A stretch of DNA of 62,939 bases, filler included, from Craspedostauros australis (Eukaryota): NCBI GenBank assembly GCA_030167865.1. It is 10 parts of 10 records of this genome, joined end to end, with 100 filler letters (N's around TTAATTAATTAA, not from the genome) between each part and the next. Parts side by side here need not be neighbours in the genome. Positions count along the whole stretch, not along the records: positions 49,650 to 57,483 come from JALAGF010005783.1; 9 more parts are not named here. One strand, 5' to 3'. Both the position numbers and the translations under genes were made by a program. Below, piece after piece: positions 23,950 to 59,051 of this stretch (positions are counted from its first letter, which is position 1; each line of letters begins with the position of its first letter). Under the pieces are notes generated by a model that was not told the origin of the DNA, did no database searches, and worked only from the letters and a program-made list of their open reading frames with translations.

Positions 23950-24045
23950 CCCTTCCATTGTTGCACCACCATACTCACTCACACACACAAATCGTCTCTC
24001 GTCACACTCCCTTGTCTCGCTCTCGCACTCATCTCTTCTGTCCCA

Positions 24046-27000: not shown

Positions 27001-27835
27001 AACGGTTGTCTAGCTTGGCCTTGATAGTCTGTCCACCGATGTGTACCATCCCCATTTCACCGAACACACGCAGGTCATTTGCATACTTCGGGATTTTTCC
27101 GTTTAAGAGTATACACGCTGGTTCCCTTGACTTCGTGCCAATGATGTTCTCCAGCTGCGTCGCCGTGTGAGCAGCCTCTGCCCACAGTTTGCCTCGCGTT
27201 GTTTTTGGTAGATGGGTTTGGTTCAGCATGGCGCGTACTTTGCCGTAGAGTGTCGCGAATTTCCTTTCGACGCGACCGTTTTGTTGCGGGGTCGATGCGG
27301 CAGTGTACTCGAAGGTTGGGGCGAATCCCCTGTTAAGTAAGAGTTTCTCTGTGGAACGATTCTCTCCTGCATTGTCACATCTGACATTTTGAACCGTTAC
27401 TCGCTGATTCGCCTGGAGCCATTGGAACAACAAGAGCATCTTCGACCCCACGTCGCTTTTCTCTGCGACGAAGTAACTCCAGCAGTAGTCGCTATAATCG
27501 TCGACCACAAGAAGCCAGTATTTGCCCCTTCCCAGGCTGTGTGTCTGGACGCTTGATGTATCCATGAACAATCGATCCCCGACTCCTTTCGCTCGTTGTT
27601 GAGTCGATTTCGACATCGGTCTCTGTCGCGATTTCCCAATCGCGCAGTCAACACACACGTTCAGTTTTCCTGTCACGTTCCAGCCGTACCTCCCTGCTGT
27701 TCGAGAGATGGTGTACGCGTCAACGTGACCTAACTTTTTATGAATTGTGTTGATGTCGACTGGTGCGTCGGTCGACACACCAACATGAGCTTGGTCGTCG
27801 GCCTTGGCGTTGCTCACCATGTTCACTCCGCACAC
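24046..27835 (-). CDS. Copia pol (GAG-pre-integrase, integrase, RT, RNase H); part of RT is represented twice across a gap
   Basis: HKKLGH...CVDC; FMDTS, VRCDNAGE, PQQNGRVER; KWVF...ARLVACG, YGLVQSARQW, YVDD; YADSEFAGD, SSTEAEY, TRHIDIRHHF, ADGFTK. Confidence 0.92.
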
Positions 27836-29138
27836 GAATCCGCTCTGGGTTGCTCATCTTGTTGTTGACGTTGTGTGGTCTCAAAGAAAGAATGGGAGAT
27901 GTGTCAGTCTGTTCGATAATGGCTGCAAAAGCGACGTCCTCCAATACCTTGGAGTCAGCTTGGTGGTTGCTGTCGTTGTCGCGTGTTTTCGCCTCGCCTG
28001 TGTTCACAGACAAGTTGGTCACATTTTCCAATTCGTTCATGTTTCTCGAGGTGGGCACACAAATTAATTCGTCTGTCATCACAAGAGCTACGTCGTTATT
28101 TCCCTCCATCCCATCAGTTGCCACATTAGCCGAGTCTGCCTCTTTCATGGCTGCCTTCAGCTTGAAGCACTGTAGGATCTTGTGTCCCTTCTTACCGCAG
28201 TACTTACACTCCCCATTGAACTTGGGCTTGCTGTTGTTGACTCCTTGGCCACTCTTCTTGTTCTTGCCGTTGTCTTTCTTGGGGGCGGAGCGGCAGTCTG
28301 CTTTCTTGTGCCCGTAGGCACCACAGTTGCGGCAGTGACCTTTGAAGCCTCCTACTGCAGCGAATGCAGTCTCTTCCCTGTTACTGTTGTTCTCACGTCT
28401 GTTGCCGCCGAGTTTGAGGTATCGGCCGTCGTAGGTGGCACTGACAGCCTCGCGGATGTCTTCGAGGGTCATGGTATCCTCCATACCGTCGAACTTGAGC
28501 TCCAAGAGCTTCACGTCCGTCTCGTATTCCCTTCCGAGGGCGTTGAGTACGAGCATGTGGTACTGTTNCATATCTATCTTGATACCAGTACTACCNAGGC
28601 GATTACGCAGCACTTCCATCTCGGTCAGGAACGTGTCTGGGTGNTCGCCTTTCTTCAACCGCATCCCGTTGAGTTGAGCCAACAACTTTGCCTTGATAGG
28701 CGCGGTACGTTGCTCGTAGATGCGCTCAAGGGCCTTCCACGCCTTGCGTGGGTCTCCACTCTCTGTGGGCCCGCCCTTGGTTCCCACCACAGCCATGAAG
28801 GCAACATTGCCTTCCGTAGTTTCATGGTTGATCGCCATGGCCAGTTCTTCAAACGCGCACTTAGCCAGCCCATTCATGTATACTTCCTTCTCCTCAGCAG
28901 TCATCGAGGCTATCTTCTTAGCGATAGACTCACCCTCTTCGATCTTCACATCGGAGATGAGGGCGCTGGGGCCGAAGGGAGCTGGCTTCACCTCCACCTT
29001 GTCTAGATCCATGAGATACANNNNNNNNNNNNNNNNNNNNNNNNNNNNNNNNNNNNNNTTGATGCTCCAACCTGTCCAGCTGGAACGCTTGCCGTCGAAG
29101 ATAACGACGCGGTCGTTCTTGCGGAGATAGGAGCTCAT
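27738..29138 (-). CDS. Copia gag with two CCHC zinc knuckles
   Basis: AWKALERIY (UBN2-type gag), CRNCGAYGHKKADC and CKYCGKKGHKILQC; ATG at 29138. Confidence 0.88.
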   Translation of the reverse strand: MSSYLRKNDRVVIFDGKRSSWTGWSIXXXXXXXXXXXXXXYLMDLDKVEVKPAPFGPSALISDVKIEEGESIAKKIASMTAEEKEVYMNGLAKCAFEELAMAINHETTEGNVAFMAVVGTKGGPTESGDPRKAWKALERIYEQRTAPIKAKLLAQLNGMRLKKGXHPDTFLTEMEVLRNRXGSTGIKIDMXQYHMLVLNALGREYETDVKLLELKFDGMEDTMTLEDIREAVSATYDGRYLKLGGNRRENNSNREETAFAAVGGFKGHCRNCGAYGHKKADCRSAPKKDNGKNKKSGQGVNNSKPKFNGECKYCGKKGHKILQCFKLKAAMKEADSANVATDGMEGNNDVALVMTDELICVPTSRNMNELENVTNLSVNTGEAKTRDNDSNHQADSKVLEDVAFAAIIEQTDTSPILSLRPHNVNNKMSNPERIRVRSEHGEQRQGRRPSSCWCVDRRTSRHQHNS

Positions 29139-30513
29139 GGTGATGTAGTGGTGGTGGTGTTTGTTGCTGTGTTGGTGGGTGATGGAAACGTTGGATTTCA
29201 ATCGTAACGTTTCGAAACGTGTTGGAAATCCNNNNNNNNNNNNNNNNNNNNNNNNNNNNNNNNNNNNNNNNNNNNTTAATTAATTAANNNNNNNNNNNNN
29301 NNNNNNNNNNNNNNNNNNNNNNNNNNNNNNNTATATTATGATGCTGATCAGCATTTATTGTGGATACAGTTGAGCCTAGGTTCTGATTCATTGCGTGTTG
29401 GGTATACTTGTGTTGCCGTCACAAGGATCACTATCTGTGAGACTGAGCTGGTTGGCACGATTGTCATGGCCCTGTTTTGGTGGGAAGATCAAGCAGTCTT
29501 GTGTGCATCGCCGTTTGTGACAGTTTACAAACAAGCAACGGATAGTTGCTGGTGGGGCTACCCATCTCGTTGTAGTTGCTCATGCTGTTCTCTTCGTATT
29601 GATTGTTGGGTGTTACCATTGCAGGTATGAGTGGTAGAGTCCGCTTGGTCTCAATGCAACTCTTGCCCAACATCACAACAAGTCCCACACAAACTACAAC
29701 GGAACAACATCTCGGCAATTTGTTGATCATGCCTCGCAGCAAGTTGTGGCCAGCGGTCAAGGAGACTCTTCGTGATGATCTCCTGCATGGAAGAATCACG
29801 GACGACATGAAACCTCGTGCTGTCTATGAACTGCGAGTCGAATACAAGCAAACCAACTACGTCAACTTCCGTACCAATCTTCGAACTCTTCGCAAGGCAT
29901 GCGATGAACAAAAGCGACGCGCACAAGCTGATGCCCAGGCTTTCGAACGATTCAAGGCCCTTCCACCAATTGTGCACACTCGCCCTCGATGGAAGGGATC
30001 AAATGCAGAGGCACAGCTGGCAACTGACTTCGATGAGGGTCTGCACCTTGCCAAGAAGCCCAACGATCTCTACGAGTCGAATGTCGTGTACCACCAGTTC
30101 ACGCTGAAGCAACTTCGCGATCACATCTATCAACTCAAGCGAAGCAAGATGGCATCGACGTANNNNNNNNNNNNNNNNNNNNNNNNNNNNNNNNNNNNNN
30201 NNNNNNNNNNNNCACTATCTGTGAGACTGAGCTGGTTGGCACGATTGTCATGGCCCTGTTTTGGTGGGAAGATCAAGCAGTCTTGTGTGCATCGCCATTT
30301 GTGACAGTTTACAAACAAGCAACGGATAGTTGCTGGTGGGGCTACCGAACTCGTTGTAGTTGCTCATGCTGTTCTCTTCGTATTGATTGTTGGGTGTTAT
30401 CTCGCAGATATGAGTGGTAGAGTCCGCTTGGTCTCACTGCGACTCTTGCCCAACGTCACAACAGGTCTCACACACAAACTACAACAGAACAACATCTCGA
30501 CTACTTGTTAATC

Positions 30514-39245: not shown

Positions 39246-41156
39246 CTTCGGGAGTGGCGGGAGACGATTCTCCTCAAGCAAATCGTTGATGTCGATTGCC
39301 TTGCTCGCCACGTCGTATGCTCCGATCACACCGATGGTCATCAGCATGAAGTACACACTCCGCACTTCCATGTGGTTCTCGTCGATGCCTTGGTATGCCT
39401 CCATCGCGTCATAGCAGATGAGCGAGAGGTCGGAACGAACATCATTCGCAGGCATCACGTTGGACAGCGAGCNNNNNNNNNNNNNNNNNNNNNNNNNNNN
39501 NNNNNNNNNNNNNNNNNNNNNNNNNNNNNNNNNNNNNNNNNNNGGCACGTCTCCCTTTGGTCCTCCTGGGATGAGGATCAAGAATGGGCAGAACGGGCAG
39601 TCAACACACCACGAGAACAAAGGCCCTTTGGTAAGGCACAGTGGGCACCACGCGTTGTCGTTGTCGCGCCGAGACGCGGTCTCGATCAATCCGTCCAAAT
39701 AGGAGCGGATGGGGCGTACGTTGTAGATCGGCTCTGATCGCCTTGCTGAGGCCGTCGCGTGGAGATCGATGCCGGGCATCGCGATCTCGTTGCTTTCGGT
39801 TTCGTCAGCTTCGCTCTCATCAGACGAGAACAAGTTGTCGCTCATCATGCGATCCGCGTCGACTTGCGGTCCGTAGTAACCGTAGTCGTTNNNNNNNNNN
39901 NNNNNNNNNNNNNNNNNNNNNNNNNNNNNNNNNNNNNNNNNNNNNNNNNNNNNNNNNNNNNNNNNNNNNNNTCCGTCGACGACCACGAGAGCCATGTCCT
40001 CCATGAGGTTTTCGATGTTGCTCTCCGTGTCGTGGGTGCGGGTTGTCACGATTTCGTGGTCGGTGAGAATTTGTTTTTCGCTCACATTTTTGGTGTTGCG
40101 CGCGATTTCTCCATCTTCCGCGATTTCGTGACATAACATCACTTCATCGACGCTGACCAGCGCGACGTCGTCCATGCCGTCCATCCCGTCGGTAGCCACA
40201 TTGGCTGAGTCCGCGTCCNNNNNNNNNNNNNNNNNNNNNNNNNNNNNNNNNNNNNNNNNNNNNNNNNNCATGCGATCCGCGTCGACTTGCGGTCCGTAGT
40301 AACCGTAGTCGTTCGGGCTGCGGATCCCAACCACTTCGATCGATCCCTCGTCATTGTTGTTGTTGGTTCCGTTGTAGAACCCTGCGGCCAAGTCTCCGTC
40401 GACGACCACGAGAGCCATGTCCTCCATGAGGTTTTCGATGTTGCTCTCCGTGTCGTGGGTGCGGGCTGTCACGATTTCGTGGTCGGTGAGAATTTGTTTT
40501 TCGCTCACATTTTTGGTGTTGCGCGCGATTTCTCCATCTTCCGCGATTCCGTGACACAACATCACTTCATCGACGCTGACCAGCGCGACGTCGTCCATGC
40601 CGTCCATCCCGTCGGTAGCCACATTGGCTGAGTCCGCGTCCTTCATCGCTGCTCTCAACTTGAAGCATTGCACGATCTTGTGGCCTGTCTTGCCACAGAA
40701 CTTGCACTTGCCATTGAAGCCTCCGGCACTGAAGTTGCCGTTGTTGCGGTTGCCGTTGCCGCGGTTGCCGTTCTTCTTGGCGCCACCGCCTTGCTTGCCA
40801 TTGCCGTTGCCGCTCTTGGTTGGGGAGCGACAGTCCGCCTTCTTGTGCCCGTAGACGCCACAGTTGCGACAGTTGCCCTTGAACCCGCCGATCGCGGCCA
40901 AGGCCATCTCNTCCTTGCCATGGTNGCCTCCTTCGNGCTTAGAACCATGTTTGGTATGGTGGCGGTCGTAGGTGAGGCACACGGCCTCGCGGATGTCTTC
41001 AACTGTCATCTTGTCTTCTTTGCCTGCGAATTTGAGCTCTATGAGCTTCACGTCCATCTCGTAGTCTCTCCTGAGAGCGTTGAGCACAAGCATGTTGTAT
41101 TGCTCGGCGTCCATCTTCACGCCAGCACTCTCCAAACGGTTGCGGAGCACCTCCAT
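39246..41156 (-). mobile_element. Copia gag fragment with two zinc knuckles and a long post-gag spacer, related to the 23157-29231 element
   Basis: CRNCGVYGHKKADC, CKFCGKTGHKIVQC and AAMKDADSANVATDGM, all nearly identical to the gag at 27738-29138. Confidence 0.88.
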
Positions 41157-42007
41157 NNNNNNNNNNNNNNNNNNNNNNNNNNNNNNNNNNNNNNNNNNNN
41201 TTAATTAATTAANNNNNNNNNNNNNNNNNNNNNNNNNNNNNNNNNNNNNNNNNNNNAAATCATGAACGCCTTTCCTTGTTGTGGTTGCTGCCACATCAAC
41301 TGCGATCATCACATCGCTGAAAACCTGTGCGCAAGTGAGAGCTTTTCGTGAGAGTTCAGGTGTCATCATCCTTGTTTGCACAGCACAATCCGCGCCCGAC
41401 AGATTGTCGTTGCCGCGTCTGCTCGTCTGTATCGTTGGCCACGAACTTCTCGTCGTGTGTTTGGACGACCGCTGCGACTAAAGTTACTTATGCCTACGAC
41501 ATACTCTCTCTGTGCAACACTGCTCAGCGACTCCCTCCAGCAAAGCGACCATTGAAACGTGCATTCTTTTCTCACCTCATTCCAGGGACTGAGCCGAACT
41601 AATTCTCCCGAACAAAGTTTTTGCGAAGAACGATCGACATCTTGGCGCTTCTCGATGAGATCGCGCATCACCGCTTCCAGAAAAAATACAGAGGCTGGTA
41701 CAGATCTTGGCGTTCGTGCATCAATCTGTCTTGTGTCCGTATATGTTCTTCAGTCTTGTCCGAGTGTATCGGATAGAATATGTTCGATAGTGTCCGTTAA
41801 TATATGGTCAGTCTTGTTTGAATCCCTCCAGAACCATCAGACTCTCTGCTCTTTCTCTCTCCAAACAGAGAGAGATGATACAAGTATTATATGCGACGAC
41901 TCTTAGTCCCAAAGTCTCTGTCATAACGCCATACTGGTACTCCATGACAGGACGCATGGCGAGTTGAAAGATGGAAGGACAGATACGAAGGCATCGATCG
42001 AAACTCA

Positions 42008-43032
42008 TGATGTTTATCAGATCAAAAGTCTATATTCACCTTAGTCTATGTCTAGTCTTGTTCTCCGTAGACTGTGTCAGGTCACGCATGAGACTTTTGG
42101 TCATGAACCGTTTTCTCTTTCTCTGTTGACCTAATTTACCGCAACTCCCAACGGCGCTCAGATACCTGTCTTGGTATCTGAAGATGGTAATGAGTTGAAG
42201 GATGGATGTCAGGCCCTGCTTGTCATCCTCCTTATGTGCACATGANNNNNNATGTCTACTGTCTTGGTGAGTGAATGTACCTGAGCATCTTGGCTCAGAT
42301 ACAAGCTCATCAATCCCATCAAATTTGGCAAGATCGCATTTCTGCAATGATCGGATTTTGCTGCATGCATCATTGTTGTTCCAAGAAGCAAGATCAGTCT
42401 TGGAGGTGCCATGAACCTCCTCAGTCTTGCAAACTCGACANNNNNNNNNNNNNNNNNNNNNNNNNNNNNNNNNNNNNNNNNNNNNNNNNNCCAAGAAGCA
42501 AGATCAGTCTTGGAGGTGCCATGAACCTCCTCAGTCTTGCAAACTCGACAACACCTTCATGCTCTCCACTTCATACACTGTAATTCATGCACTGCACTTC
42601 ATGCTCTGCTGTGTGTTGCAACACATGTTGCCTCAACATCATTTTCATCATTTCATCTCCATCTGCTCACAATTCAGACTCCAACAGTTCTGAATTGGGC
42701 CAGCTTACATACCAACTAACTTCAATTAACCACTCAGAGCACAACAACACTATTACACAGCTTCACTCTACTTCATTGACGGACTTGATCACTCCCAATT
42801 TTGAGGTAAGTACCCATCTTTCATCTGTGTTCTATCAGATTAACAGTCGCAATCGCCTACATCCTATGCTGAACGCGTGAACCATCGTCATTTCCCATTG
42901 TCATTGAGCATTCATCAAAATCATCATCTTGCAACATCGCGTGACGACGTGAAGTTGATTCCATCTCTGTGACTTCAGCTTTGCTGCGCAGAACATCAGA
43001 GCCAATCGGCTTGTGCACACTCACTTCCATCA
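42008..43032 (+). repeat. Candidate 5' LTR of the downstream copia element
   Basis: TGATG...CATCA ends located before an A/C-rich leader and the gag ATG. No second LTR is available to confirm the boundaries. Confidence 0.3.
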
Positions 43033-43310
43033 CTTTTAGACGCATTCGTCAGTGATATCCATTGCCTTGTTACCCAAGTACTTCATCAAACACATCATCC
43101 ATTTGGTATCGATCACATCCGATCTACCAACACATCATCCATTTGGTATTGATCACACCCGATCTACCAACACTTCAACAATCAAACAATCAAACAATCA
43201 AACAATCAATCACACACAAACAATCACACACAAACATCAATACAAACAATCAAACGCAATCAAACACAAACAAACAAAAACAAACACAATCAAACAAACT
43301 ACATTCCAAG

Positions 43311-46300
43311 ATGACTACTACCGTTTCCGAAGCCGAGATTTTCGCCCATGTGCTGAGCGTCATCGGCATCACTGCAGGTACCGATCAACGCGACCTTCTG
43401 GAACATGAAGGTATCAACAACATGTCGGATCTCCTGCTCGTTGAGCGCGACGACCTTGTCGCAATGCGATTCGTGAGTGCTGACGAGGATGCAGAGCCTT
43501 TCGCGTACCAACTCAATGGGCCAACCATCCGCAAGATCCTCGCCCTCCATCGGTGGTACCAACTTCAGGACAACCCTACGTTCGCCACCTGGTACCGCAT
43601 CACCGGACATTCTCTCGCTGAGTCGATCGCCACCCCTCTTGTTGATCCATCGGTTGCAGCAGCGACTGCAGCAGCAGCAGCAGCAGCAGCAACAACTCCA
43701 CCAATCCCTGATGAGGCGCCTTCGTCTGCAACAGCTGGCGCAGCATTCTCTCGTCTCCAGGACTTCCGAAAGGGGATGAAGCGCGACAGCGGACGATTCC
43801 CGAAGCTCAAGGAGGACAAGTACTTCCTGTCCTTCAGACGCACATTCGCGACTGTCGCCGCATCCCAAGGCGTATCCAACGTCCTGGACCCTGACTACAA
43901 TCCGCCCACTGAGGATCAAACTCTCTTCGATGAGCAGAACATCTTCGTCTATGGTGCTCTTGTCCTCAGCCTCAAGACTCAGAAGGGTCAAGGTTGTGTC
44001 CGGCGCTTCGAGGATTCCATGGATGGCCAAGCTGCCTATACCACTCTTCTCGCAGAGTACACCTCTGGTGTGACAGCTGCCAACTCTGCAAAGGCACTTC
44101 GCACATCCCTCGAGTCCCTCAAACTGGACAAGGATTGGCGAGGTACCCGGGAGTCCTTCCTCGATGCTTGGTCCAACAAGGTTCGTGACTTGGAGACAAT
44201 CCAAGATCACACTGTGTCCCCCGAGCGCAAGCGCGACTGGCTTGAGGAGTCTATCTCCCAGGATGCCGAGCTGTACCGAGCACTCTTCGAGTCTCAGTAC
44301 CTTGAGGCGTCCCTCGATGCCATGAGCATTGCCGGAGTCTCCAGAGACTTCACCCTCGACTTTGACAAGATCTTCTCGCTGGTGTGCAGTCATGCGCAGT
44401 GCTTGGATCATGTCAAGCCACGTGGACGTACCAATCGAAAGGTCCACAACGCCAAGCACTCTGGCACCAATTCTGGTGCACATTCGTGGAGCAAGGACAA
44501 AGACTATTCAAAGGATCCTCGTCCCCGTGTCCCTCATGATGAGTGGATGAAGATGGACAAGAGCCAACGCCAAGCATTCCTCCAAGCAAAGGGGAAGTGG
44601 GATCCCAACCGTGCCAAAGGCGGCCGCAATCGCTCTGTCAACAAGNNNNNNNNNNNNNNNNNNNNNNNNNNNNNNNNNNNNNNNNNNNNNNNNNNNNNNN
44701 NNNNNNNNNNNNNNNNNNNNNNNNNCGCACCTCCAGGCGACGCCATCAGCCGCATGCTCGCCAACGCCAAGACGACCGGATCATCTGACGTGCCTGTCCT
44801 GTCCTACAAGGGGCAAACCTGGCGTCTCGCCAACCAAGCCGTGATTCGCTACCAATTTCACAAGGCATCCAAGGAACTGGACGGATCTCTCGTCGACAGT
44901 GGAGCCAATGGTGGTCTCGCTGGGGATGATGTCGTGGTGCTATGCAAGACCGGACACACCGCTGATGTCAACGGCATTGGAGATTCAGCCATCGGCAACC
45001 TTGACATTGGTTCTGTTGCTGGACTCGTCCAGACCACTGACGGACCAATCATCGCCGTATTCCATCAATACGCGCTGTACGGGAAGCACAAGACGATTCA
45101 TTCGGCCAATCAGCTCGCCTCCTTCGGCGTGGATGTCAATGAACGTCCCCGTGATCTGCCTGGTGGCCGACAGACCATTGTGACCCCTGGCGGTCATGTG
45201 ATTCCTTTGTCAATCCGCCAAGGCTTGTCGTACATGGACATGCGTCCTCCGACTCGTGCCCAACTCGATCAGCTCCCTCACGTCGACTTCACAGCCGACA
45301 ATGAATCGGATCCTTCCTCACTTGACCATGAGCTTGATGTCACCGACGTCGCTCCACAAGATCCAGAACCTCCATTGGATGATCGCAGCCATGCCGTCGA
45401 TGTCTTCGTCGTCGACCAACACCCATCTGCGGACGACTCCATCGTCCCGACAGGCGGCATCCAACAACGCCCCTCGCCTATCGACTACGAGGCACTCCGT
45501 CCGCACTTCGGGTGGATCCCTGCTCGTCGTGTGCGAGACACTCTTCGCTGCACATCGCAGTGGTACCGCACCGCAGAGAGATTCTCAATGCGGAAGCACT
45601 TCAAGAACCGCTTTCCGGCAGCCAACGTCGATCGCTTGCATGAGGTGGTGGCCATGGACACCCTGTTCTCGGACACCCCTGCGCATGACGATGGAGTGCC
45701 TGGACATGGCGGGTGCACCATGATTCAAGTCTACGTTGCTCTCCAATCCAGATTCACCGCAGGCTTTCCCATGTCCTCGGAGAAGCAGGTCGCCAGCACG
45801 CTGTTGGATTTCATCCGACGTCACGGCGCGCCTGACTTACTCATGTCGGACAATGCGAAGTCTGAGGTCGGTTCCAAGGTCCAGGAGATTCTTCGACAAT
45901 ATGCTGTCAAGGACCATCAGAGCGAGCCGGAGCATCAGCACCAGAATGGTGCTGAACGCCGAATCCAAGACATCAAGCGAACTACGAATGGAATCATGGA
46001 TCGCACCGGAACACCATCGAAGTACTGGCTCATCTGCACCCAGTACGTCATTTNGTTGTTCAACCACATCGCCCAGCACACTGCAGGAGACATCACCCCT
46101 CTGCAGGCTGCATATGGGCATCGCCCCGATGTGAGCAAGTTCCTTGCTTACCGCTGGTGGCAGCCTGTGTACTTCCGAGTTGAGCAGCCAGGATTCCCCA
46201 GCCACTCCAAGGATCGTCGCGGTCGCTGGGCCGGCCCATGCGCTCACAAAGGAGACGACCTGACCTTCTGGATTCTGGATGATGAGTCCCAGCGACTCNN

Positions 46301-48291
46301 NNNNNNNNNNNNNNNNNNNNNNNNNNNNNNNNNNNNNNNNNNNNNNNNACATCAAGCGAACTACGAATGGAATCATGGATCGCACCGGAACACCATCGAA
46401 GTACTGGCTCATCTGCACCCAGTACGTCATTTTGTTGTTCAACCACATCGCCCAGCACACTGCAGGAGACATCACCCCTCTGCAGGCTGCATATGGGCAT
46501 CGCCCCGATGTGAGCAAGTTCCTTGCTTACCGCTGGTGGCAGCCTGTGTACTTCCGNGTTGAGNAGCCAGGATTCCCCAGCCACTCCAAGGANCGNCGCG
46601 GTCGCTGGGCCGGCCCATGCGCTCACAAAGGAGACGACCTGACCTTCTGGATTCTGGATGATGAGTCCCAGCGACTCCTGCCCAGATCTGCAATCCGCTC
46701 TGCGGATGATCCAGATACCAGGAACCTTCGAGCTGACTTCCCCTTCCCCATTGTTGGGGAGGAGGATGATGCGGTGAGTGAACCATCGGATGATGGGGAG
46801 GTGTCGGATGACATATCCGTCCCTCCTGACTCTGATCCGATCGTCCATTCTCTCTCNNNNNNNNNNNNNNNNNNNNNNNNNNNNNNNNNNNNNNNNNNNN
46901 NNNNNNNNNNNNNNNNNNNNNNNNNNNNNNNNNNNNNNNNNNNNNNNNNNNNNNNNNNNNNNNNNNNNNNNNNNNNNNNNNNNGAGGTTCGTGCGGACGT
47001 CGTTCGCAAGATCAACGACCATGACGCGGACAATCATCAACGCATCAAGCTCCTGCTCTCTCTCAATGATGGGGAGACGAATGAGTTGATGGCGTACACC
47101 GAACTTTCCGACATCATCGAGAGTCAACAGGACTCCGACCCTGAGGGCAACAAGTGGATATTCCATGACATCATCGGTCATGACGGTCCCATCTCACCCT
47201 CATCGTCGTCCTACAAGGGATCTCGTTTCAACGTCACCGTCCAATGGAATGATGGCTCCACTTCGTCTGAGCCTCTTTCGGCAATGATCCAAGACGACCC
47301 TGCCACATGNNNNNNNNNNNNNNNNNNNNNNNNNNNNNNNNNNNNNNNNNNNNNNNNNNNNNNNNNNNNNNNNNNNNNNNNNNNNNNNNNNNNNNNNNNN
47401 NNNNNNGATGTCGCCAAGACTCGGACACACGGCAACATCCCGACCTTCCAATTTGGTGTGCAAGTGCCCAGGAACCATCAAGAGGCCATGCAGCTTGACC
47501 GGAAGAACGGCAACACCTTTTGGGCTGATGCTGAGCGGAAGGAAATGCAGCAGCTGTTCGACTATGGGACATTCGAGTCTCTTGGCAAGCAACAGGCTCC
47601 ACCAGATGGATATCAGAAGATCCGCCTTCAGTGGGTCTATGCAATCAAGCATGACCTACGGCATAAGGCTCGATGTGTTGCAGGAGGTCATCTGACAGAC
47701 CAGTGCAAGGACATGTCCTATGCTGGGGTTGTCAGCCTCCGCTCTCTCCGCATCGCTCTCCTGGCAGGTGAGCTCAATGGACTCTCCACCATGGTGGGTG
47801 ATATTGGCAATGCTTACCTCGAAGCATTCACCAAGGAGAAGATCTGCTTCATCGCTGGTGAAGAGTTTGGTGAGCATGCCGGCCATATGATGCGCATCGT
47901 CAAAGCGCTCTATGGCCTGCGTACCTCTGGAGCTCGTTTTCACGAAGCACTCTCCGACACTCTCAGAGACATGGGTTTCACCCAATGTCGTTCTGACCCT
48001 GACGTCTGGATGCATGATGCTGGCTCCCACTGGGAGTACATCTGCGTCTATGTGGACGACTTGATGGCAGTCATGAAGGATCCCCATTCCTTCTTTGACG
48101 CATTGACATCCAAGTACGGCTACAAGCTGAAAGGCGTCGGTCCCATCGAATATCATCTGGGAGCTGACTTTGGTCGAGATCCAGATGGCACTCTGAAGAT
48201 GAGTCCGCATTCCTACATCAAAAGGATGTTGACGAACTTCGAACGCATGTTTGGCGCACTCCCAAAGAAGGCAAGCTGTCCTCTGGACAAA
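43311..48291 (+). mobile_element. Ty1/copia (CoDi-I-like) gag-pol polyprotein: gag, protease, integrase, chromo-like module, RT; 3'-truncated
   Basis: LVDSGANGG; VAMDTLFSD, MSDNAKSE, HQNGAERRIQ; WVYAIKHDLRHKARCVAGG, GDIGNAYL, KALYGLRTSG, YVDDL. ATG at 43311 follows a CAAA-rich leader. Part of the integrase is duplicated across a gap. Confidence 0.93.
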
Positions 48292-49549: not shown

Positions 49550-49650
49550 NNNNNNNNNNNNNNNNNNNNNNNNNNNNNNNNNNNNNNNNNNNNTTAATTA
49601 ATTAANNNNNNNNNNNNNNNNNNNNNNNNNNNNNNNNNNNNNNNNNNNNC

Positions 49651-50883
49651 TTGGTCCGCGATGACCTCCGAGACTGGAGATACTCCAAACTGCAATATTG
49701 GGTTGTATCCATCGGTCTGTCATCAGTCCTGCTGGTGATAACCAGCATCATACTCAAGTGGGTGATGATCGGCAAGAAGAGACCGGGCCAAGCGAGGACC
49801 GGTATCTGGAGTGAATTCGCAGACTGGGCATGCGACTATCACTTCGACCGAGCATGCATGATACTCGACGGACTGACCACCAATTCGATCATTTGGAACC
49901 TGGTCCACATGGCTCATGGATTGGACATCGATCTGCGATCAAAGATCTTCAGTGACAGCTTCCATCCATCCGGAGTCGACCTCATCACCATCCGACGATC
50001 GTTCGTATCCGTCGTCACCTTCCACACGAAGGAAAACAGTAAATACAGGAGAGTCACGATCGAGGATAGCAGCATTGGGATGCTGACGACCTGCGCGCCG
50101 GGTGTGACAGTCCGCAACGCTTTGGTCTCGCCGCAGACACATATCACGGAGAGCGTCATCCGTCCAAAGCCCGATCCGCGCAACAAGAGAGTATCAGACT
50201 CGAAACTGACCGGGATCATGGTGGCGAGCACACTGCTCTACGCTGTCATGTTGCTCGTTGCGGCAATCAGCTTCATCCCAGCCTTTGAGCTATGGATGAA
50301 TGTCGTCAAGCCGCAGTCATCATTCGAGGCGGTCCCACTGGTGGTGCTATCGGTCATCATCCAGACCATTGTGTGGACCATGCTCTTGCGTGTCCACATA
50401 TTCATGACGTTCGCGGGAAGCAATGAGCGAACGACGCCATGGTGCTTGCCGCTGTACATGGTGTACCAATCGTTCGCTTACTCTGTCCATGTATGGTCGC
50501 TGTATCCCATCCTCTCGGGAACACCGATGATCAACAGCGTTCTCCGCTTTCGTGGGGTCAACGTTGAAGGTCGCTTGCTCTACTTCGGCTTCCGCCTCTT
50601 CGAGCCGACCTACGTCACCTTCGCGGATGGATGCGTCGTCGATGAATGTTGGATCACTGGTCACTGCGGCGTATTCTCCCAACTGACTTTGGGGAAGTCG
50701 TACATCAGCGGAGTGTTGCATCAAAATTGTGCTGTCATGATGGTGGCGAAGACAGCAGCAACAGCGGACAAAGCAAGGTTGGCTGAACACGGACCTCAGC
50801 ATCTCCTCATGAACTCGGACCAATCGCTGGGTGGAGGACAAACGCAAGCCTCCCAGGAGATGATCAATTCAGATACAGCTTGA
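49651..50883 (+). CDS. 5'-partial: Pls/PosA-type NRPS terminal module (TM helices alternating with left-handed beta-helix-like domains)
   Basis: LKWVMIGKKRPG...W, VDLITI, VTIEDSSIG...PGVTV, LSGTPMINSVLRFRGVNV and EPTYVTFADGCVV...GH, separated by pairs of hydrophobic segments. Confidence 0.75.
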   Translation: MVRDDLRDWRYSKLQYWVVSIGLSSVLLVITSIILKWVMIGKKRPGQARTGIWSEFADWACDYHFDRACMILDGLTTNSIIWNLVHMAHGLDIDLRSKIFSDSFHPSGVDLITIRRSFVSVVTFHTKENSKYRRVTIEDSSIGMLTTCAPGVTVRNALVSPQTHITESVIRPKPDPRNKRVSDSKLTGIMVASTLLYAVMLLVAAISFIPAFELWMNVVKPQSSFEAVPLVVLSVIIQTIVWTMLLRVHIFMTFAGSNERTTPWCLPLYMVYQSFAYSVHVWSLYPILSGTPMINSVLRFRGVNVEGRLLYFGFRLFEPTYVTFADGCVVDECWITGHCGVFSQLTLGKSYISGVLHQNCAVMMVAKTAATADKARLAEHGPQHLLMNSDQSLGGGQTQASQEMINSDTA

Positions 50884-51644
50884 GGCCGCACGACGCAATA
50901 GCGACATCATTCACCATGGAGTTAAGAAGTAGAGAGCTGCACGATCAGGAGATTGAGCTGCGAGGATTGCAGTCGGATTGGTGGGCGCAGCAATGGAGAG
51001 TGAGAAATTCACTGTGAAATCACTGACTATCTACACAGAGCACTTTGCTCTCATCCACTATGGCCGTAGCTATTTCCAACAGACATGGTTCTGCGAATCC
51101 GTTCTCAGTGACGCACCAATGCTGAACGCTCGGTGGCGGTTCCTCGTTGTCTCCGCAGCCGATGATGCCGTACTGCTCGTACTATCGTTGTGCTGCCTTT
51201 ACATCGAAACCCATAGTCGCATTCGTTTGCAGGACGAAAAGATGATGCCGATTGCCGCATGCCGACTAGGATCAAGCTTACGTATCACAGTGCAGGATTT
51301 TGCGGTTGGCGAGACAGCCAGCATCGCCTCGCCCATCACAAACGCAGCTGATACTATTCGTCAGGAATCGGGTGTACCGAAACACCAAATTGCCGCACCT
51401 TCCAAGAGCGTGGAGTTGAGAATTGTAAAACGGTATATTACCTCACCTCCCAAGAGTAAGCAGCCGAATGTTATGATATGCTACATTACCGCAACCTTCG
51501 CCCTTGGATCTTTGTGACAGAAAAATGTGAGTTGCATGTGTTTTGTGATGGAGAACGACACGTGCCGAATGCGAACCGTACCTTGGCGTTCGTGACCTAA
51601 ATTCAGGAATGCGAATCACACATGGATGTCGCAGGGGGCAGGGA

Positions 51645-52222
51645 TGTTGGAATCATGACCAACATCACGATACACGCGACTACGGCCCCCATGTCACAAC
51701 CAATGAAAAAGAGTACTGGAGGAAGGCCGATGTCACAAAGTGTGAGATGGCCTGTGAATGGACCAGTGATGAAGAACCTCCAGGAAGCCAGTGAAGTGAT
51801 CAGTGAAGTAATCGGAGAAGCGATCAGAGAAGCATCGGAGATGATCGGAAATGTGTGATGATGAGGAGCTGAGAGAGACCTCATCCAGGATGTTCCCGTG
51901 ACGAATGGGAGACCGTGATCTGATCAAATGAACTGATCTGTGTGATGCCTATGACTCGGCGATGTCTAAGGCATCGAAACTATCAGCGGAGGACATTGTG
52001 CTTGTGTGCACGGATATGGGGTACTTGGTGGCGCATGCATGTCCATGATGAATTTGCAATGAATGCAAGATGGATGCCTGCTAGACCAACAGAGGGACCC
52101 ATGGAGATCTCAGGAGGAGATCGGACTTTGAAGTTGAGAGCAATGAAGAGCTCACAGTTCAGAGAAGTAGATTCTAGCAAACAGTTAGCTTTCTACTATC
52201 ACACCACCCCGGATTTCCAACA
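51645..52222 (+). mobile_element. Remnant 3' LTR of a copia related to the 23157-29231 element
   Basis: Purine-rich AGGGGGCAGGGA is followed by TGTTGGAATC; the end is CCCCGGATTTCCAACA. The last ~100 bp align with the reverse complement of 23157-23260 (GAGATCGGA, GCTCACAGTTC, CTACTA). Confidence 0.75.
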
Positions 52223-53059
52223 GGTGTTGGTTGATAGTTGTTCTGTTTGCTATTTCATTAGTTGAGCACTCCAATCCTCTTGGTGTCTCCGTTCTCTTGC
52301 CCGATGCTCTCGGCATGTCTCTCTGTTTCGTAGATTGGTCTCCGACTATGAGTCGGTACGCAAGATGCTCTCTCGCTGTTATTTGTATCAACGTCTAGAT
52401 CGAAATTAGGCTAACATCTCTCATGACTGAAACGTGATTCGACTTGAATTGAGAGTATAGTCGGATGAGTCTTGATGATGCGAATGGTGTTCGGGTTCTA
52501 CTGTCATCGAATCTGATGTAGGCACTGACATCATCAATGACATCAGAAGATCAGTCATTGTGATCCGAGGAATCGAGATTATATCTTAGTCATGGTATGC
52601 TGACTTGTCTAGCAATGCCAAGTGCATCATCGAGCACGTGGCAACAACATTTAGAATACAGATCGTCGTCGTCAGAGATGATGCATGCATCATGTCGACA
52701 TCGACGGATCGAGATATATGCAGATCAGACAGAGATCAAGATTAGGCGAGACCAGGAGAGATGGAGAAAGACCCAAGAGCATGAATAACACAAGATATCG
52801 TGTAGATCAACATGCCATCTTGGGCAATGTTTTAGGAAAGACTGCAACATGACCCACGGTGTAATCATGCAGCACATTAGAAACTCGTGCAATAGGCACC
52901 ATCTTTAGAATGATGAGATCATGTTCTCATAATCAAAACTCAATCATCAATTGACACACCAACTTAGCAACAACAACAATCACCAAACACACTGACTCCA
53001 CCTATCGGATTGATCATCCAGGCGGCATAGTAAGTGCAGTGTTTGGTGCTCCCCTCTTG

Positions 53060-53549
53060 TCCTGTGTGTAATTTCTGATTATCTCTTCCTGACTTCTTGT
53101 CCTTCTTGGGCATGGGTGTGTCCATGTTGAAGATGCTGTTGTCGAAGAAGGACTCGTTCGTTTGGAATCGAGTGGCATCAGCAGGTCAGCTGCGCCCGGT
53201 TCCGGAGCGGCTCAGAGTGGCCGTGGCTGCTGTTGCTTGAGCAGTGGCTGCGGCAGCATACGCTGCTTCTGCAGCGGCTTCGGCCACTGACGCTACCTGT
53301 GTGAGGCAGACATTTTCGGCCGTGATCGCTTCGAGCTGCGCTTGCAGCTCTTCCAGCATGGCAGGGGTCGTGTCTTCTGCCGTGATGGTTAGCGGGGACT
53401 TCTCGAGGAGTCTTCGGACTTTGAGGGGATCGATCTGTTTGCCTTCTTTTGCTCTTGGTCGACTTCACTTCGTTTGGAAGGCGTGCACTGAAGTTCGATG
53501 CAGGCTTGGAGAGGGCTTGTACTCAGTCAGTGAGTGCAGTTCTAGCATG
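53060..53549 (-). pseudogene. Degenerate Ala-rich reading frame with in-frame stops, possibly a gag remnant
   Basis: ...MLEELQAQLEAITAENV...AEAAAEAAYAAAATAQATAA..., interrupted by TGA codons. Confidence 0.3.
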
Positions 53550-54899
53550 CTTTGGCAGAGGCTACTGATGGTTGACATTTGGTTGCTTACCTTCAGCTGG
53601 GACTTTCATCCTCTTAAGTGACTCGGTTTTCGAGCGTTGGGATCTGATCTCAAATCAGATGCATGCAGTGAGGACTTGGTCCTTTGGTAGATGCTCGGTT
53701 TACAAGCTGTGCCTTTTGGCTTGGTCTCAGAGAGACACTTGCGATCAGTTGGCAGAGGAAGATGCTTGGTGGAGTTGATAAGTGAGTATTTGGTAACCAC
53801 TCGCAGCTACCAGTTAGGATTTGGGCTCAGTCGACATGAATTGGTAGATGCCTCACGAACTGCTGGTTTCAAGATAACCATGTAGTGCAGTTCAAGAGGG
53901 GTGTACTGGATTGAAGATGTGTTTCTGTAACGATGAGTAGATGAGTGCTTTGGTACTAATCTCTGTCTGTTTATTATGAGTTATCTAGTAGTATTGGTAG
54001 GATGAAGAAACGATGTCACACAGCTTGATAGGACCCTGCACTGATGTACTTGGTTCAGTGCTTGAGGGCAGACATTGATTACTGCTCCTTGCTCTCTTTA
54101 CATGTAGACACACTGCAGTATAGATCATGACACTCAATGGAGGTGGTCATGAAGCAATGGCTGTGGCTGGAGTTCACTCTTGGATTCCTTTGCTTGAGTT
54201 GAAGCAAGTTGGATATACGTGCCAAGACTATGACGGTGATGTAGTAGTCATTGGCATGGAGGGAATCGAGGTATGTTGTAGTGAAAGGATTTGGGGAGCA
54301 TATAGTTCCCAAGGTGAAATGTGGTCATGTTATGAGTCATGATGGATTTGTGAATGGAAGAGAGAAAGGAGGAGAAAAGATTTGGTGGTCGATCAAGTCG
54401 GAAGATTTCGCGCCAAAACAAGAATTTCTCCCATCGGAGGCGGGTACCGTGTCCGGCAGTAGTCTGTCCCTTATTGAATCTCAACTCCCTCTGTGATTGA
54501 TTTTGTGCACGATTCCATACCATACACGTACGTCCATGCCGGCCACTGTTCCACTCGCCCAGTACCAGACAGGAACATCGTGTGATGACCAGAGAAGAAG
54601 CACCGTCTGCAGTGGCAATCACGTACCCAGACCAGGATGGAGAAAAGATGATAGAGCTCAAGAAATACGTGGTCAGCTCATTCCGTGCATTGTGCATGCG
54701 GATGGGTCTGTGTGTGCTCTACGCGTGCTCCCAACGAGCATTCCCCTCGGCTCGTGCAAACACGAGCTGCGGACGGAAAGAGAGGCAGGCAATTCTTCCT
54801 TGCTCTGGTGGTGGGTGTCGTGAGCTCTCACGGCCGCTGAAAACATGACCATTCAAAATGCTCGAACGGCGCGATGCCACCGTCCTTGTGCGATCGATC

Positions 54900-55050
54900 A
54901 ATGGAACTATTACAATGGAACTCCAATGAAACTATTGTAATGGAACCACAATGGAACCATCCTATTTTACAATGGAGCTATCGTCATGGCGCTCCAATGG
55001 AACTCTTGTAGTGGGACTCCGATGGAACTATTATATTTTCAGTGGGACTA
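54900..55050 (+). repeat. Array of ~11 degenerate AATGGAAC(T) motifs upstream of the FAAL gene
   Basis: Copies near 54900, 54914, 54925, 54939, 54950, 54971, 54985, 54996, 55010, 55021 and 55041. Confidence 0.8.
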
Positions 55051-55567
55051 TTATGTCCCTAACGAGATTATGGGCCTCTCATGTGACAATTTGGCACTCA
55101 ACATTGACGTGACACATTTGTATCTATGTGCCACATTTGTCACCTGTCCGCATCGGCCAGTTGAGGTGCACTGGGAATGTGTTTTCGACTTCCACACAGC
55201 GTTCTCGCGGAGAGCAGTGACAAATGGGGCACATATGCCAAATTTGTCAGCAAGTTTCTCAGGAGGGATATTCGTATAACAATACAATGGAACAATCAAT
55301 GAAGGAATCCACCAGTCCACGAAAATCTGAAGTCGGAGGGTGGCGACTGGCTGAAGACAGGGCGAGTGGCTCAGCGAGATGTGTTGTAAGCAACAGATTG
55401 CTTTGCACAACGGTGCTTACGACACGAGCTTTCACCTTCCCAACTGCTCGCAATTTCAGTCCGAGGGCGAACAGCTTCACAAATCAAGCAATGCAGCAAG
55501 ATCAAAGCAACCGCAACACCCGCATCACATCTGCTAACGCTCCTTCGCATCAACAGCATATCCCAAC

Positions 55568-57483
55568 ATGAGTATCCCATCGCCACCCTCCAACATCAAC
55601 CCCGCCATTGCTGCCGATGATATCGAAGCCAGCATCGTCAACGTCATCACCACTGAGCATGAAATCATCCACCAATCCATAAAGGAGAAGTCTTTCATCG
55701 ACCATATCAAGTTCGTCGTCGAGCTCAAGTCCGACACCGTCTTCTCCACCTGGTACAACGACAAGGGAAAGGCAGTGAACAACTACACCTTCCAGCAGCT
55801 TTGGGATGAAGCGGGGCACTGCGCCCACCTCCTTCGCAATAAATGGGGCACCAACAAAGGTGATCGCGTCGTCCTCTGCTACGACTTTGGTCTGCACTTC
55901 TTCGCTGTCTTCTTGGGATGTCTCCGTGCAGGCGTGACTGCCGTGCTGGTCTACCCTCCGGGACCTCCGCTCGTCAAATCGCTCACCAAGATGAACAAGG
56001 TGGTCGAGGATTGCGCTCCAGCACTCATCCTCACCCAAACATCCATCAATCTCCTTCGAGCCGCCGATCGCGCCAACCCAGCATCCAAGAGCCGCGCCAT
56101 GTGGCCGAGCGGTGTCAAGTACCAAGTTACCGATCGCATCATCCGTCACGATCCGTTCATCGCCAACAAGAGCAACAACAACAAAAGCAACAGTAACAGC
56201 AAGAGCAACAACAACTCCAAGCAGACACAGAAAGGCCTCCTTTCCAACCTCATCTCTGGCCGCTTCTCGTCGCCGCCACCGTCCTTCGATGAACCAAACA
56301 TTGAGGGGTCGGATCTGGCGTTCCTCCAGTACACATCCGGGAGCACCGGCAATCCCAAGGGCGTCATGGTCACCCACAAAGCACTGCAGGCCAACATCGA
56401 GCTCGGACAGAGCTACTGGTTCGCTTCATTTCAAGACCAGCTGGGTGATACGAGCAACATCCCAAAGCGCATCGCCATATGCTCTTGGTTGCCGCAGTAC
56501 CATGACATGGGCCTCATCGAGATGGGCATTGCTCCATTGGCAGGCGCCTTTCGTTCCCACATGATATCCCCCGTCGCATTCATCCGCAACCCGGTGCTCT
56601 GGATTGACCTCATGTCACAACACAAGTGCCACATCAGCGCCGCTCCTGACTTCGCCTATCGGTTGGTCACCCGCAAGTTCAACGAGGCCAAGACAAATCT
56701 TACGCACAAGCTGGACCTCTCCAGCGTACTTCATTTCCAGAATGCCGCAGAGCCAATCCGGCTGGACACGGAGAAAGGGTTCGCCGATGCATTCTGTCCG
56801 TATGGCTTGCGCAAGGACTGGTTCCTCGCAGCGTATGGACTGGCGGAGAACGTCGTTGGTGTCAGCTGCAATCATAACTCTCATCTTTCCACTATCCGCG
56901 AAGGTGAAGATCTGCAGTCATTCATCGCCATCGCACAGCGCAGCAATCTGCACAGCTCCATCGATATCATCATCGTGGACCCGGATACCCGAGTACAATG
57001 TCCAGACAGCGTCACAGGAGAGATCTGGATCGCCGGGGCCTCTGTGACAGCCGGATACTACAATCGGCCACAGCTCACCGCCGAAATCTTCCAAGCTACA
57101 CTCAAAGGCGATTCATCATCCGACACCAATACCGATCGCAAAGTGTACTTGCGAACGGGAGACTACGGATTCTACCAAGATGACTATCTCTACATCTGCG
57201 GACGCAAGAAGGACATCATCATCGTCAATGGTGTCAACTACTATCCGCAAGATATCGAGCACGCCGTTGAAGAGGCATCATCTGCCGTCCGTCCAGGCTG
57301 TGTCGCAGCATTCTCATCAGATGAATCAGGCAACGATGGACAGCTCGAGATCGTCTTTGAGATCCGAGCCAATCGTGCAGACGATGCTGCAACAGTCTGT
57401 CAGGAGATCAGAAAGGCCGTGATGGAGCACATCGGATTGACACCTGTCACAATCGCAGCTGTGGAAGAACGCACCATATCCAA
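55568..57483 (+). CDS. Fatty acyl-AMP ligase (FAAL)-type adenylation domain, 3'-partial; probably the N-terminus of a multidomain NRPS-like protein
   Basis: LAFLQYTSGSTGNPKGVMVTH, SWLPQYHDMGLI, AAEPIR, YGLAE, GEIWIAGASVTAGYY, LRTGDYG and GRKKDIIIVNGVNYYPQDIE are FAAL-type signatures. Confidence 0.9.
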
Positions 57484-57583: not shown

Positions 57584-59051
57584 CAGATACTGCAACATCA
57601 TCGTCGAATCCAAGTGCGATATCTTGGAGAAGATCGATGCCTACCACACACTGGCAGACATCGCTGCAGCAGAGCACAAGAGAGATGACAAGGAATCCGC
57701 TGCAGTACAGCTTTGCTTGAGCGTCCTAGCAATGTTGGGATGCAACATACCAAAGCCCGGGATGAAACGAACATTTGCGATCATCTCTGGACTCCTCAAG
57801 GTGAAGCGTGCCGCTCGTTCGTTGACATCGGAATCCATTGCAAAGCTCCCGCTGAATGAAAATGAGAAGGAGGAAGCAGTGATGAGCACGTTGGGTAAGC
57901 TTGTCACGCTTTGCTACCTCGCCGACCCAGAGCTCATACCCATCATCGCCCTCAAGACTTTTCAACGAACGTTCAAGTACGGCATGTCCGAGCATTCCCC
58001 GATCGCCTTCATCTTCCTGGGCCTCATAACGGGATCAGCCATGGGCGATGTCAAGGCACGTGAGAATCTGGGACGAGCTTCACTTGATATTCTGAGAAAG
58101 CTAGATCACCCCGCCACCCAACCTGCAATTATCTTCAATTTCTACTCGTTGATACAGCACTGGAACCAGCCATTGGAAGAGATCAAAGAGCCGTTCATGG
58201 AGGCGTATCGCACGGCCACGGCATGTGGCGATTTGGAAACTGCGTCGTGGAGCATCTCCAATTACATCGCGTTCTCCTTTTTTGACGGAACTCGGCTTTC
58301 CCAAGTCGATGCCGATTGCGCCATGTACGCCAAAGTGATGCTGGATTTCAAGCAGACCCAGCAGCATCACTTCCTGTCGATGGCGTGGCAGAGGGTTATG
58401 AACCTCCGCGGCACATCCAAGCATACCGTCCTCCTCATCGGGGACGCCTTCGACGAACGCAAGGGCACCGACGATACGGTTGGCTTGATGGCCAACACTC
58501 AGAAGCACGCACTCGCCATGAGCAAAGCAGAGCTATGCTCCCACTTCGGCGAATACGAGATGGGCGCCAATCTCGCAGCCCCATCCGTTTTCGCCTTCGC
58601 CAAGGCGACAATGGGCACGTTCGCCCCGGCCCCAAACTTTTTTCGCACAGCGCTGAATTGTCTGGCTGCATCACAACAAGGCGCCAAATCGAGGCGGAAA
58701 TACCTCAGGACGGCCCAGCAATGCACAAAGCAGCTGAAGGTGTGGAACAAGCAGGGCCATCCCAACTGCCCCCACTACCTCACAATTCTAGATGCCGAAG
58801 AACAATTCCTGCGCGGAAAGCACAGCAAAGCCGTCACAGCTTATACGCAGGCCATCCAAAGCACATCGCAGCGTGGGTATGTTCATGATCAGGCACTGGC
58901 GAATGAGAGACTTGCAGATTGTTTGATGGATTACGGTCGTTGCGATGACGCAAAGTATCGGTACGGAGAGTCATCGAGGTTGTACAGGGAGTGGGGGGCC
59001 TTGAAGAAGGTGGAAGTGCTGAAGGCAAAGACACAGGACCTGTTTGGGTAA
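57584..59051 (+). CDS. 5'-partial: C-terminal helical/TPR-like region of a COG3899-like AAA-ATPase protein
   Basis: KYGMSEHSPIAF, QHWNQPL...AYR...GDLETA, AYTQAI...GYVHDQALANERLA...LYREWGALKKVEVL. Confidence 0.8.

Follow-up and report, generated by a model that had tools for sequence, protein, structure and literature searches.

A fatty acyl-AMP ligase fused to a Pls-like membrane module: an undescribed gene family in the alga Craspedostauros australis

The epsilon-poly-L-lysine and delta-poly-L-ornithine synthetases (Pls and PosA, PMC10522769) carry an adenylation (A) domain together with a carrier domain and a terminal module of ~700 aa in one chain. The A domain of PosA needs Asp217 and Glu221 (PMC10522769), and the acceptor of Pls is free lysine or the chain, never covalently bound (PMC9205021). 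Fatty acyl-AMP ligases (FAALs) form a different type of adenylating enzyme, with the EcFAAL hallmarks W224, P226, M231, helix R251-P259, F279 and P107 (PMC8460268). Acyltransferases with a left-handed beta-helix (LbH) fold place the catalytic His on a hairpin loop leaving the helix, with the active site between two helices (PMC3046976), and the donor of one of them, LpxA, is acyl-ACP (acyl carrier protein, PMC6408518). In Craspedostauros australis, a FAAL domain is fused to a carrier domain and to a Pls-like membrane module in one protein, encoded by a large and undescribed gene family. The ends of two near-identical copies lie in the window analysed here, a stretch of 62,939 nucleotides made of ten unplaced contigs chained via N44-TTAATTAATTAA-N44 stop-linkers.

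The Aas protein of Escherichia coli activates a fatty acid without coenzyme A (CoA) and transfers it within the same protein. Fusions of a FAAL with a lysophospholipid acyltransferase also exist (PMC8460268). The present family follows the same logic as these two systems; theirs is a PlsC-type transferase, whereas a trimer of beta-helices would take its place here. The DIP2/CPS1 proteins and the plant FAAL-HemY-catalase proteins are likewise eukaryotic FAALs independent of polyketide synthases (PKS) and nonribosomal peptide synthetases (NRPS), but their partner domains differ (PMC8460268).

The ninth contig of the window (49650-57483, G000:C5783, 7834 bp, zero N) holds the tail of one family gene and the head of the next in the same orientation:

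49651..50883, + strand, P0001, 3' part of the upstream gene: 410 aa, open at the contig start, the last two thirds of the Pls-like membrane module
50884..55567, no strand, 4684-bp spacer made up largely of multi-copy repeats (51437-52223, 52386-53093 and 53085-54487)
55568..57483, + strand, P0002, 5' part of the downstream gene: frame 55568-57481 from Met 55568, 638 aa with the FAAL domain, running off the contig end
49650..50131, + strand, overlap with the end of G000:C5573: 482 bp, 100% identity, also equal to the start of G000:C5970
55726..57483, + strand, FAAL core: 1758 bp, identical in G000:C5573 and G000:C1315

The fusion is seen directly in contig C5573, which joins 55726-57483 and 49650-50131 (both at 100%) in one stop-free frame of 1215 aa, via a carrier domain with the motif GLSSM and the first membrane repeat. 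The order within this single frame is FAAL, carrier domain, membrane module. In the genome as a whole, 53 matches to P0001 and 74 to P0002 were found, two of the 74 being other FAAL types; 30 loci were fetched from each match set, plus further stretches. The whole architecture, scored by six motifs that follow in order between the N-part of the FAAL and the final repeat, occurs without a stop in 12 of the 46 extracted frames, among which C844 duplicates C3448 and C5865 contains 90 X. Read from Met to stop, four copies each give one frame, 1477-1566 aa long; several others carry stops. The sequence-only reading had described a gap-free contig that opens in the tail of one gene and closes in a co-oriented gene starting with a FAAL domain, and had proposed that the two are parts of tandem paralogues of a FAAL-ACP-terminal-module enzyme. 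The contig, the FAAL start and the fusion are all borne out, and the tandem arrangement fits the assembly graph (two heads, two linkers, two tails).

The assignment of the A domain rests on agreement between models, structures and single residues. The ten NCBIfam models that match P0002 best are all of FAAL type or related to it (lowest E 4e-89), and none reaches its curated cut-off. Compared with solved structures, P0002 scores best against FAAL-type enzymes (258 bits), versus 86 bits for the best NRPS A domain. The relevant motifs are as follows:

55952..55969, + strand, YPPGPP (residues 129-134), proline loop, presumed counterpart of the proline at the alternative pocket of FAALs
56330..56362, + strand, ATP-binding loop YTSGSTGNPKG (residues 255-265)
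56486..56653, + strand, FAAL signature block: W307, P309, M314, helix S334-P342 and F362, spaced exactly as EcFAAL W224, P226, M231, R251-P259 and F279

The spacing of W307, M314 and F362, the residues that block the CoA pocket, is identical to that of their EcFAAL counterparts. The W, P and F are kept in all 30 own-genome frames that cover the block, and the equivalent of M231 is Met in 27 and Leu in 3. The putative FAAL-specific helix, SPVAFIRNP, ends 35 residues after the Trp and aligns, in sequence only, with the corresponding motif in 7R7G, a loading domain from a cyanobacterium. YPPGPP is presumably the equivalent of EcFAAL P107, given the shared YPP motif. The counterpart of PosA Asp217 is the ordinary FAAL HD (HDMG motif), and the position of PosA Glu221 is occupied by Ile317, an Ile in 31 of 31 frames compared; the Pls-like rows show FDxSxE. 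Judged on these residues, the A domain is a FAAL without the Pls glutamate. With EcFAAL, FadD32 and 7R7G (PMC8460268) it shares the blocking W, M and F, the specific helix, the proline loops and a fused carrier; in contrast to these systems, a Pls-like membrane module follows instead of PKS or NRPS modules.

The Ser of the carrier motif is present in 73 of 73 rows, and the modelled carrier matches the four-helix carrier protein fold (Z 10.6, rmsd 1.7, 69 aligned), so that phosphopantetheine modification would be expected. The genome holds two genes for phosphopantetheinyl transferases (PPTases). One of them (G000:C1378, locus L114, 7068-8717) shares its contig with a family gene ~9 kb away; a cluster of the two was considered and rejected, with three unrelated genes between them.

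The Pls/PosA relationship of P0001 is visible only via intact paralogues and profile comparison. P0001 alone matches no NCBIfam family at E<=1, TIGR02353 included, and its single Pfam hit is a sub-threshold LbH model (E 0.09). It contains transmembrane (TM) helix 4, beta-helix 2, TM helices 5-6 and beta-helix 3 of the module:

49690..49776, + strand, TM helix 4 (P0001 14-42), by hydropathy; a helix in the C4462 model
49912..50154, + strand, LbH repeat 2, approximate limits mapped from the paralogue model by alignment; repeat homology
50200..50409, + strand, TM helices 5 and 6 (P0001 184-253), by hydropathy and the C4462 model
50548..50799, + strand, LbH repeat 3, approximate limits; model, repeat homology and weak Pfam LbH match
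50662..50664, + strand, His338 of P0001, candidate catalytic His; by alignment, with a role by analogy with LbH acyltransferases (PMC3046976)

A profile of 74 family rows aligned (hhalign) to 31 Pls-like rows over 691 columns with probability 100 and E 1.1e-56, at 18% identity. The 31 rows are uncharacterised Pls-like proteins, and two database-named Pls/PosA proteins are among the similarity-search matches. An AlphaFold model was made on paralogue C4462, which is 89% identical to P0001, from an alignment of 72 rows (module pLDDT 91.3, pTM 0.90). It predicts three long helix pairs, read as TM hairpins, each followed by a beta-rich repeat that forms a beta-helix. Six TM helices in three pairs with three left-handed beta-helices are also described for the PosA model (PMC10522769). 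In fold comparison, LbH acetyltransferases rank first (Z 12.2, rmsd 3.1, 146 aligned). The His of repeat 3 is found in 71 of 72 family rows, falls in the column that holds the QTHLFEDR His in all 31 Pls-like rows, and lies in the model at the start of a hairpin leaving the beta-helix. The fold is shared with maltose O-acetyltransferase, NeuO and LpxA, and the His may correspond to the catalytic one of such enzymes. What sets the family apart from them is one chain with three unequal repeats and a single His, the membrane hairpins and a donor supply of its own.

The likeness to Pls and PosA has clear limits. In TIGR02353, none of 45 matches passes the curated cut-off of 423 bits, the best reaching 75.6 bits, mainly over repeat 1. 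The E, D and R after the His, invariant in Pls-like proteins, are not kept in the family, which suggests a non-cationic acceptor. Both repeat 2 and repeat 3 are shorter here than in Pls-like proteins and have diverged more. The family further differs in its FAAL-type A domain, its separate branch of terminal modules (below) and its many copies per genome. From profile and model, the terminal module is judged homologous to that of Pls/PosA, yet the protein is not a Pls member, because the TIGR02353 cut-off is failed and the Pls side-chain Glu is replaced. The sequence-only reading had named the upstream reading frame Pls/PosA-like and expected a TIGR02353-type domain; the homology stands through the paralogues, and the membership and the domain match do not.

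The number of genes is considerable. At 97% nucleotide identity, the 30 FAAL loci fall into 22 groups, and the 26 usable of 30 tail loci into 18, the tails clustering into 8 types at 80-90% identity. This gives an estimate of at least 18-22 distinct gene copies in the genome, and some near-identical pairs may be alleles. Two other FAAL genes were seen: one of the same clade that ends right after the FAAL domain (L102, G000:C4162, 1934-4231), and a more distant one (L103, G000:C3954, 3134-5050), which encodes a FAAL-carrier didomain, has a DSL-type motif and lacks the membrane module.

The path between copies was deduced from contig overlaps. After the shared 1758-bp FAAL core, C5573 and C1315 take different linkers and rejoin in the carrier domain. 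The start of C5970 is identical to the tail in the window to base 492, is 99% alike thereafter, and continues into other genes. A second FAAL head, G000:C6042, has 94-98% identity to the head in the window and another upstream flank. With two each of heads, linkers and tails around one common FAAL core, the graph is read most simply as two recent tandem copies. An interpretation of the two heads as alleles is ruled out by the different upstream flank of C6042, and a circular unit of 9241 bp, though possible, is not needed as an alternative layout. C6042 is interrupted at the equivalent of 55731 by sequence that starts like the long terminal repeat (LTR) of the Copia element at window 23949, where the LTR on the minus strand matches the insertion. 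The upstream tandem copy, the owner of P0001, thus probably carries an LTR retrotransposon insertion. Neighbouring copies occur elsewhere too: C6186 has another co-oriented pair of family genes ~5 kb apart, and in Chrysophaeum taylorii family genes have neighbouring gene numbers.

No Rfam or Pfam match was obtained in the spacer, and two of its reading frames also lack a match. Between 330 and 670 bp upstream of the FAAL start, the spacer holds an array of CAATGGAAC-rich ~25-bp units (54899-55035) and a 19-bp inverted repeat (55125-55235), which are possible promoter elements. A stretch 160-480 bp past the stop of P0001 (51045-51362) is 68-74% conserved even behind the distant paralogues C1683, C4432, C6186, C6421 and C4488, and is a possible 3' regulatory element. 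No sequencing run is on record as RNA for this genome. Contigs of a run guessed to be RNA (X1) cover 49650-50959, some as paralogue-like variants, with almost none over the spacer and FAAL part; they were not used as evidence of expression.

All six segments of the gene are under purifying selection (median dN/dS 0.09-0.40), the highest summed value being 0.45 in repeat 3. The segments do not share one history. In the FAAL core C4462 pairs with C4488 as its sister (95% identical, dS 0.17), but the two belong to different terminal clades (57-68%, dS 0.9-1.6), and C6421 combines a C4462-type carrier with a C1625-type terminal part. Approximately unbiased (AU) tests, with groups defined from the tree of the other segment, reject both crossed groupings: the terminal clade when set on the FAAL tree (p 6e-106), and the FAAL pair when set on that of repeat 1 (p 4e-5). 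Simple misjoins are unlikely because the mosaic partners are 91-96% alike and not identical; the pairs with identical halves (C4387/C984 and C5573/C1315) could be assembly collapses. On these segment comparisons, the paralogues are shown to exchange FAAL and terminal modules by recombination. In this expanded family, the swapped parts would correspond to donor choice (FAAL) and acceptor choice (terminal module).

The design extends well beyond this genome. Matches to the terminal profile include 27 proteins named or numbered as Seminavis robusta, some of which were also in the training set of the profile. Brown algae contribute five further matches (174-234 bits) and Chaetoceros tenuissimus two, besides many proteins without a name. 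The nearest named relatives come from S. robusta and C. tenuissimus, and these, with the Atlas cluster, mark the source genome as that of a diatom. The same design is found in two proteins of the choanoflagellate Salpingoeca kvevrii and two of the pelagophyte Chrysophaeum. In a FastTree phylogeny of 83 terminal modules of unknown root, which drew on 20 of the 53 rows with a Pls-like label and on 6 of the 56 rows with none, a branch of support 100 separates the FAAL-linked modules from the Pls-like modules and from a third, non-FAAL diatom group. Proteins P0081, P0241 and P0242 (Mayamaea, Cylindrotheca and Stephanodiscus) form a separate A-carrier-terminal family with an A domain that is neither FAAL nor Pls, CHLN at the His and a branch of their own. 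The 'plsA' labels of P0027, P0110 and P0037 inside the FAAL branch are false and stem from a loose pattern; databases name the family proteins FadD21 or D-alanine ligase.

Variants insert domains that tailor acyl thioesters, namely a flavin oxidoreductase, an acyl-CoA dehydrogenase, a ketosynthase (KS) or KS-AT-KR (AT, acyltransferase; KR, ketoreductase), before the terminal module, or a hydrolase or reductase after it. In P0094 an alpha/beta-hydrolase is fused to the family protein, and on a protist contig (L118, 1125-6553) a co-oriented alpha/beta-hydrolase gene follows a family gene after 210 bp. A bacterial fused form was sought in 185,579 prokaryote genomes by a narrow scan with two patterns, which returned 2 loci, both with Pls-type A domains, and none of the bacterial-named long FAAL proteins matches the terminal profile (34 of 96 new rows did). 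The deep-branching P0151 sits among eukaryotic genes, and the similarity searches made returned no plant-named proteins. The absence of a bacterial fused form is weak evidence; a bacterial origin of the fused gene, for which a phylogeny had been suggested, gained no support from the searches and is not supported.

The literature covers each part on its own. S. robusta was reported in 2026 to have 16 FAALs, diatoms being the FAAL-richest eukaryotes, and multidomain diatom forms are listed as FAAL-PKS (PMC12820801). The available passages of that source do not mention the terminal module, and its five FAALPred text supplements contain neither Seminavis nor NRPS_term nor TIGR02353, with the architecture tables perhaps not fully visible. 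Eukaryotic Pls homologues are surveyed in PMC10522769, in whose main text, as far as available, 'fatty' and 'alga' are absent. Diatom NRPS-like enzymes are described as uninvestigated until a study of an A-T-R-R type (PMC13194791). A 2026 preprint, in the part available, assigns the most heat-selected single-nucleotide polymorphisms in Cladocopium to an NRPS-terminal-domain gene whose A-domain type is not stated. The accessible parts of PMC7335047, PMC8506220 and PMC4661987 hold nothing specific to a FAAL with a Pls-type module, and the literature search found no publication describing that combination. What is new is a protein that would work like a Pls-type membrane transferase fed by a FAAL.

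We favour a one-protein, CoA-independent transfer of a single acyl group to a cytosolic or membrane acceptor, a reading we hold to be somewhat more probable than its negation. A protein of ~1500 aa would form the complete acyl-transfer line, the fold being modelled and the chemistry drawn by analogy with LbH acyltransferases and Pls. The FAAL domain, typed by sequence, would adenylate a fatty or similarly hydrophobic acid, which would be loaded onto the phosphopantetheine of the fused carrier. The carrier would present the thioester to a pseudo-trimer of three beta-helices on three TM hairpins. The repeat-3 His may then act as base in one acyl transfer to a diffusible amine or alcohol, at the cytosolic face or in the membrane; this transfer would yield an N-acyl amide or O-acyl ester. 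The TM hairpins are paired and no signal peptide was seen by hydropathy among 12 inspected N-termini (no dedicated predictor was used), which would leave the catalytic face on the same side of the membrane as the FAAL; the acceptor would then be cytosolic or in the membrane, a directly extracellular one being unlikely, and the product may be exported afterwards. Single transfer is the default because a plain fatty acid has no second nucleophile; a polymer would require a hydroxy or amino acid substrate. The earlier suggestion of a lipid-derived polymer or an acylated extracellular acceptor survives in its acyl transfer, which remains the best reading; the hairpins and the N-termini make the extracellular acceptor unlikely, and a polymer is less likely in that a plain fatty acid cannot self-polymerise.

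Several observations weigh against this proposal. The FAAL-specific insertion would follow YGLAE, and the segment there is ~12 residues shorter than in 7R7G. McyG, solved in complex with phenylalanyl-adenylate, falls in the FAAL clade (E 8e-36, 126 bits). Pfam PP-binding exceeds its cut-off in only one of five own copies scanned (motif GLSSM), the remaining copies lying below, so that the PP-binding domain anticipated from the sequence is confirmed by this model in part. The fold matches are limited to the carrier and repeat 1; gamma-carbonic-anhydrase-like and non-catalytic beta-helices match nearly as well (Z 10.8 and 10.4); and the PDB searches returned single beta-helix and carrier matches, with no full Pls-type terminal module among the listed families. 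A sequence search of the Pls-like repeat 3 against the PDB gave weak matches, with no residue-level alignment to a proven catalytic His. Only one of the three repeats keeps a His.

These points feed other explanations to different degrees. The whole three-repeat module and its His are retained from Pls-like enzymes, which are known to transfer iteratively onto a chain that is free to diffuse (PMC9205021), and some relatives carry oxidoreductase or KR domains as a potential source of hydroxyls. The protein could accordingly be a true Pls-like polymerase that adds a FAAL-activated hydroxy (or amino) fatty acid iteratively, giving an estolide, polyester or polyamide that leaves via the helix bundle. 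The translated copies of this genome have no tailoring domain, a plain fatty acid offers no second nucleophile and repeats 2 and 3 are reduced relative to Pls-like proteins, and we regard such a polymerase as unlikely. Equally unlikely, in our estimate, is its boldest form: a new class of eukaryotic lipid-polymer synthases, a Pls polymerase rewired to a FAAL that exports polyesters or lipo-amides of modified fatty acids (for example to a diatom coat or trail), with ~20+ recombining paralogues giving combinatorial donor and acceptor specificities. The match to McyG, the shortened insertion segment and the pocket-side segments that vary among paralogues mark a divergence from model FAALs and would suit a non-fatty donor, an aromatic or other small acid as in McyG-type starters, yielding small amides or esters. 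Entries of the long-chain FAAL type score far higher (258 against 126 bits), and relatives contain acyl-CoA dehydrogenase and PKS domains; a non-fatty donor is quite unlikely.

The near-equal match of non-transferase beta-helices and the single His among three repeats would also fit a terminal module that serves as a release or export device, by hydrolysis or by handing the acyl group to the bilayer or a partner protein, and not as a transferase. Activation followed by hydrolysis without tailoring would only waste ATP, however, and the His is common to Pls-like enzymes, which leaves this option improbable. We find scarcely credible that the protein is a membrane-anchored acyl-CoA synthetase whose carrier and terminal parts are vestigial and passively multiplied in repeat-rich DNA. 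The short insertion segment, the copies with stops or an LTR insertion and the repeats in the spacer would agree with it, but the residues blocking the CoA pocket are retained, the carrier Ser is invariant, the carrier and all repeats are under purifying selection, and the architecture is kept from diatoms to a choanoflagellate.

The remaining contigs of the window carry genes of other kinds. Three tandem co-oriented genes of 700-850 aa (6629-9139, 10123-12666 and 13976-16075, + strand) each end in DUF6824; their shared middle region, which has no Pfam match, is presumably CRAL/TRIO-like and lipid-binding, to judge by eye. On the minus strand follow a DEAH-box RNA helicase (16196-18772) and a secreted-looking berberine-bridge-type FAD-linked oxidase with a Ser/Thr/Pro-rich tail and a hydrophobic end (19033-21501). 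Pieces of Copia-type LTR retrotransposons, of at least two families, occupy 22278-29231, 39246-41156, 41257-48291 and 1-1274. The contig after the FAAL head holds a 488-aa TPR-like C-terminal gene part (57584-59051, + strand) with weak TPR and SNAP matches, unlinked to the FAAL genes.

The abundance of FAALs in diatoms has been reported without an explanation of what most of them do (PMC12820801, available passages). Because 27 S. robusta proteins carry the design, along with proteins of Chaetoceros, brown algae, Chrysophaeum and a choanoflagellate, the FAAL-Pls-like form is probably the main form of diatom FAAL and suggests that major primary producers make a lipid so far undescribed. The repeat-3 His gives the Pls terminal module a testable catalytic candidate, and the natural module swaps could map the choice of donor and acceptor. 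The whole protein comes from one intron-free gene, and is hence directly expressible and assayable.

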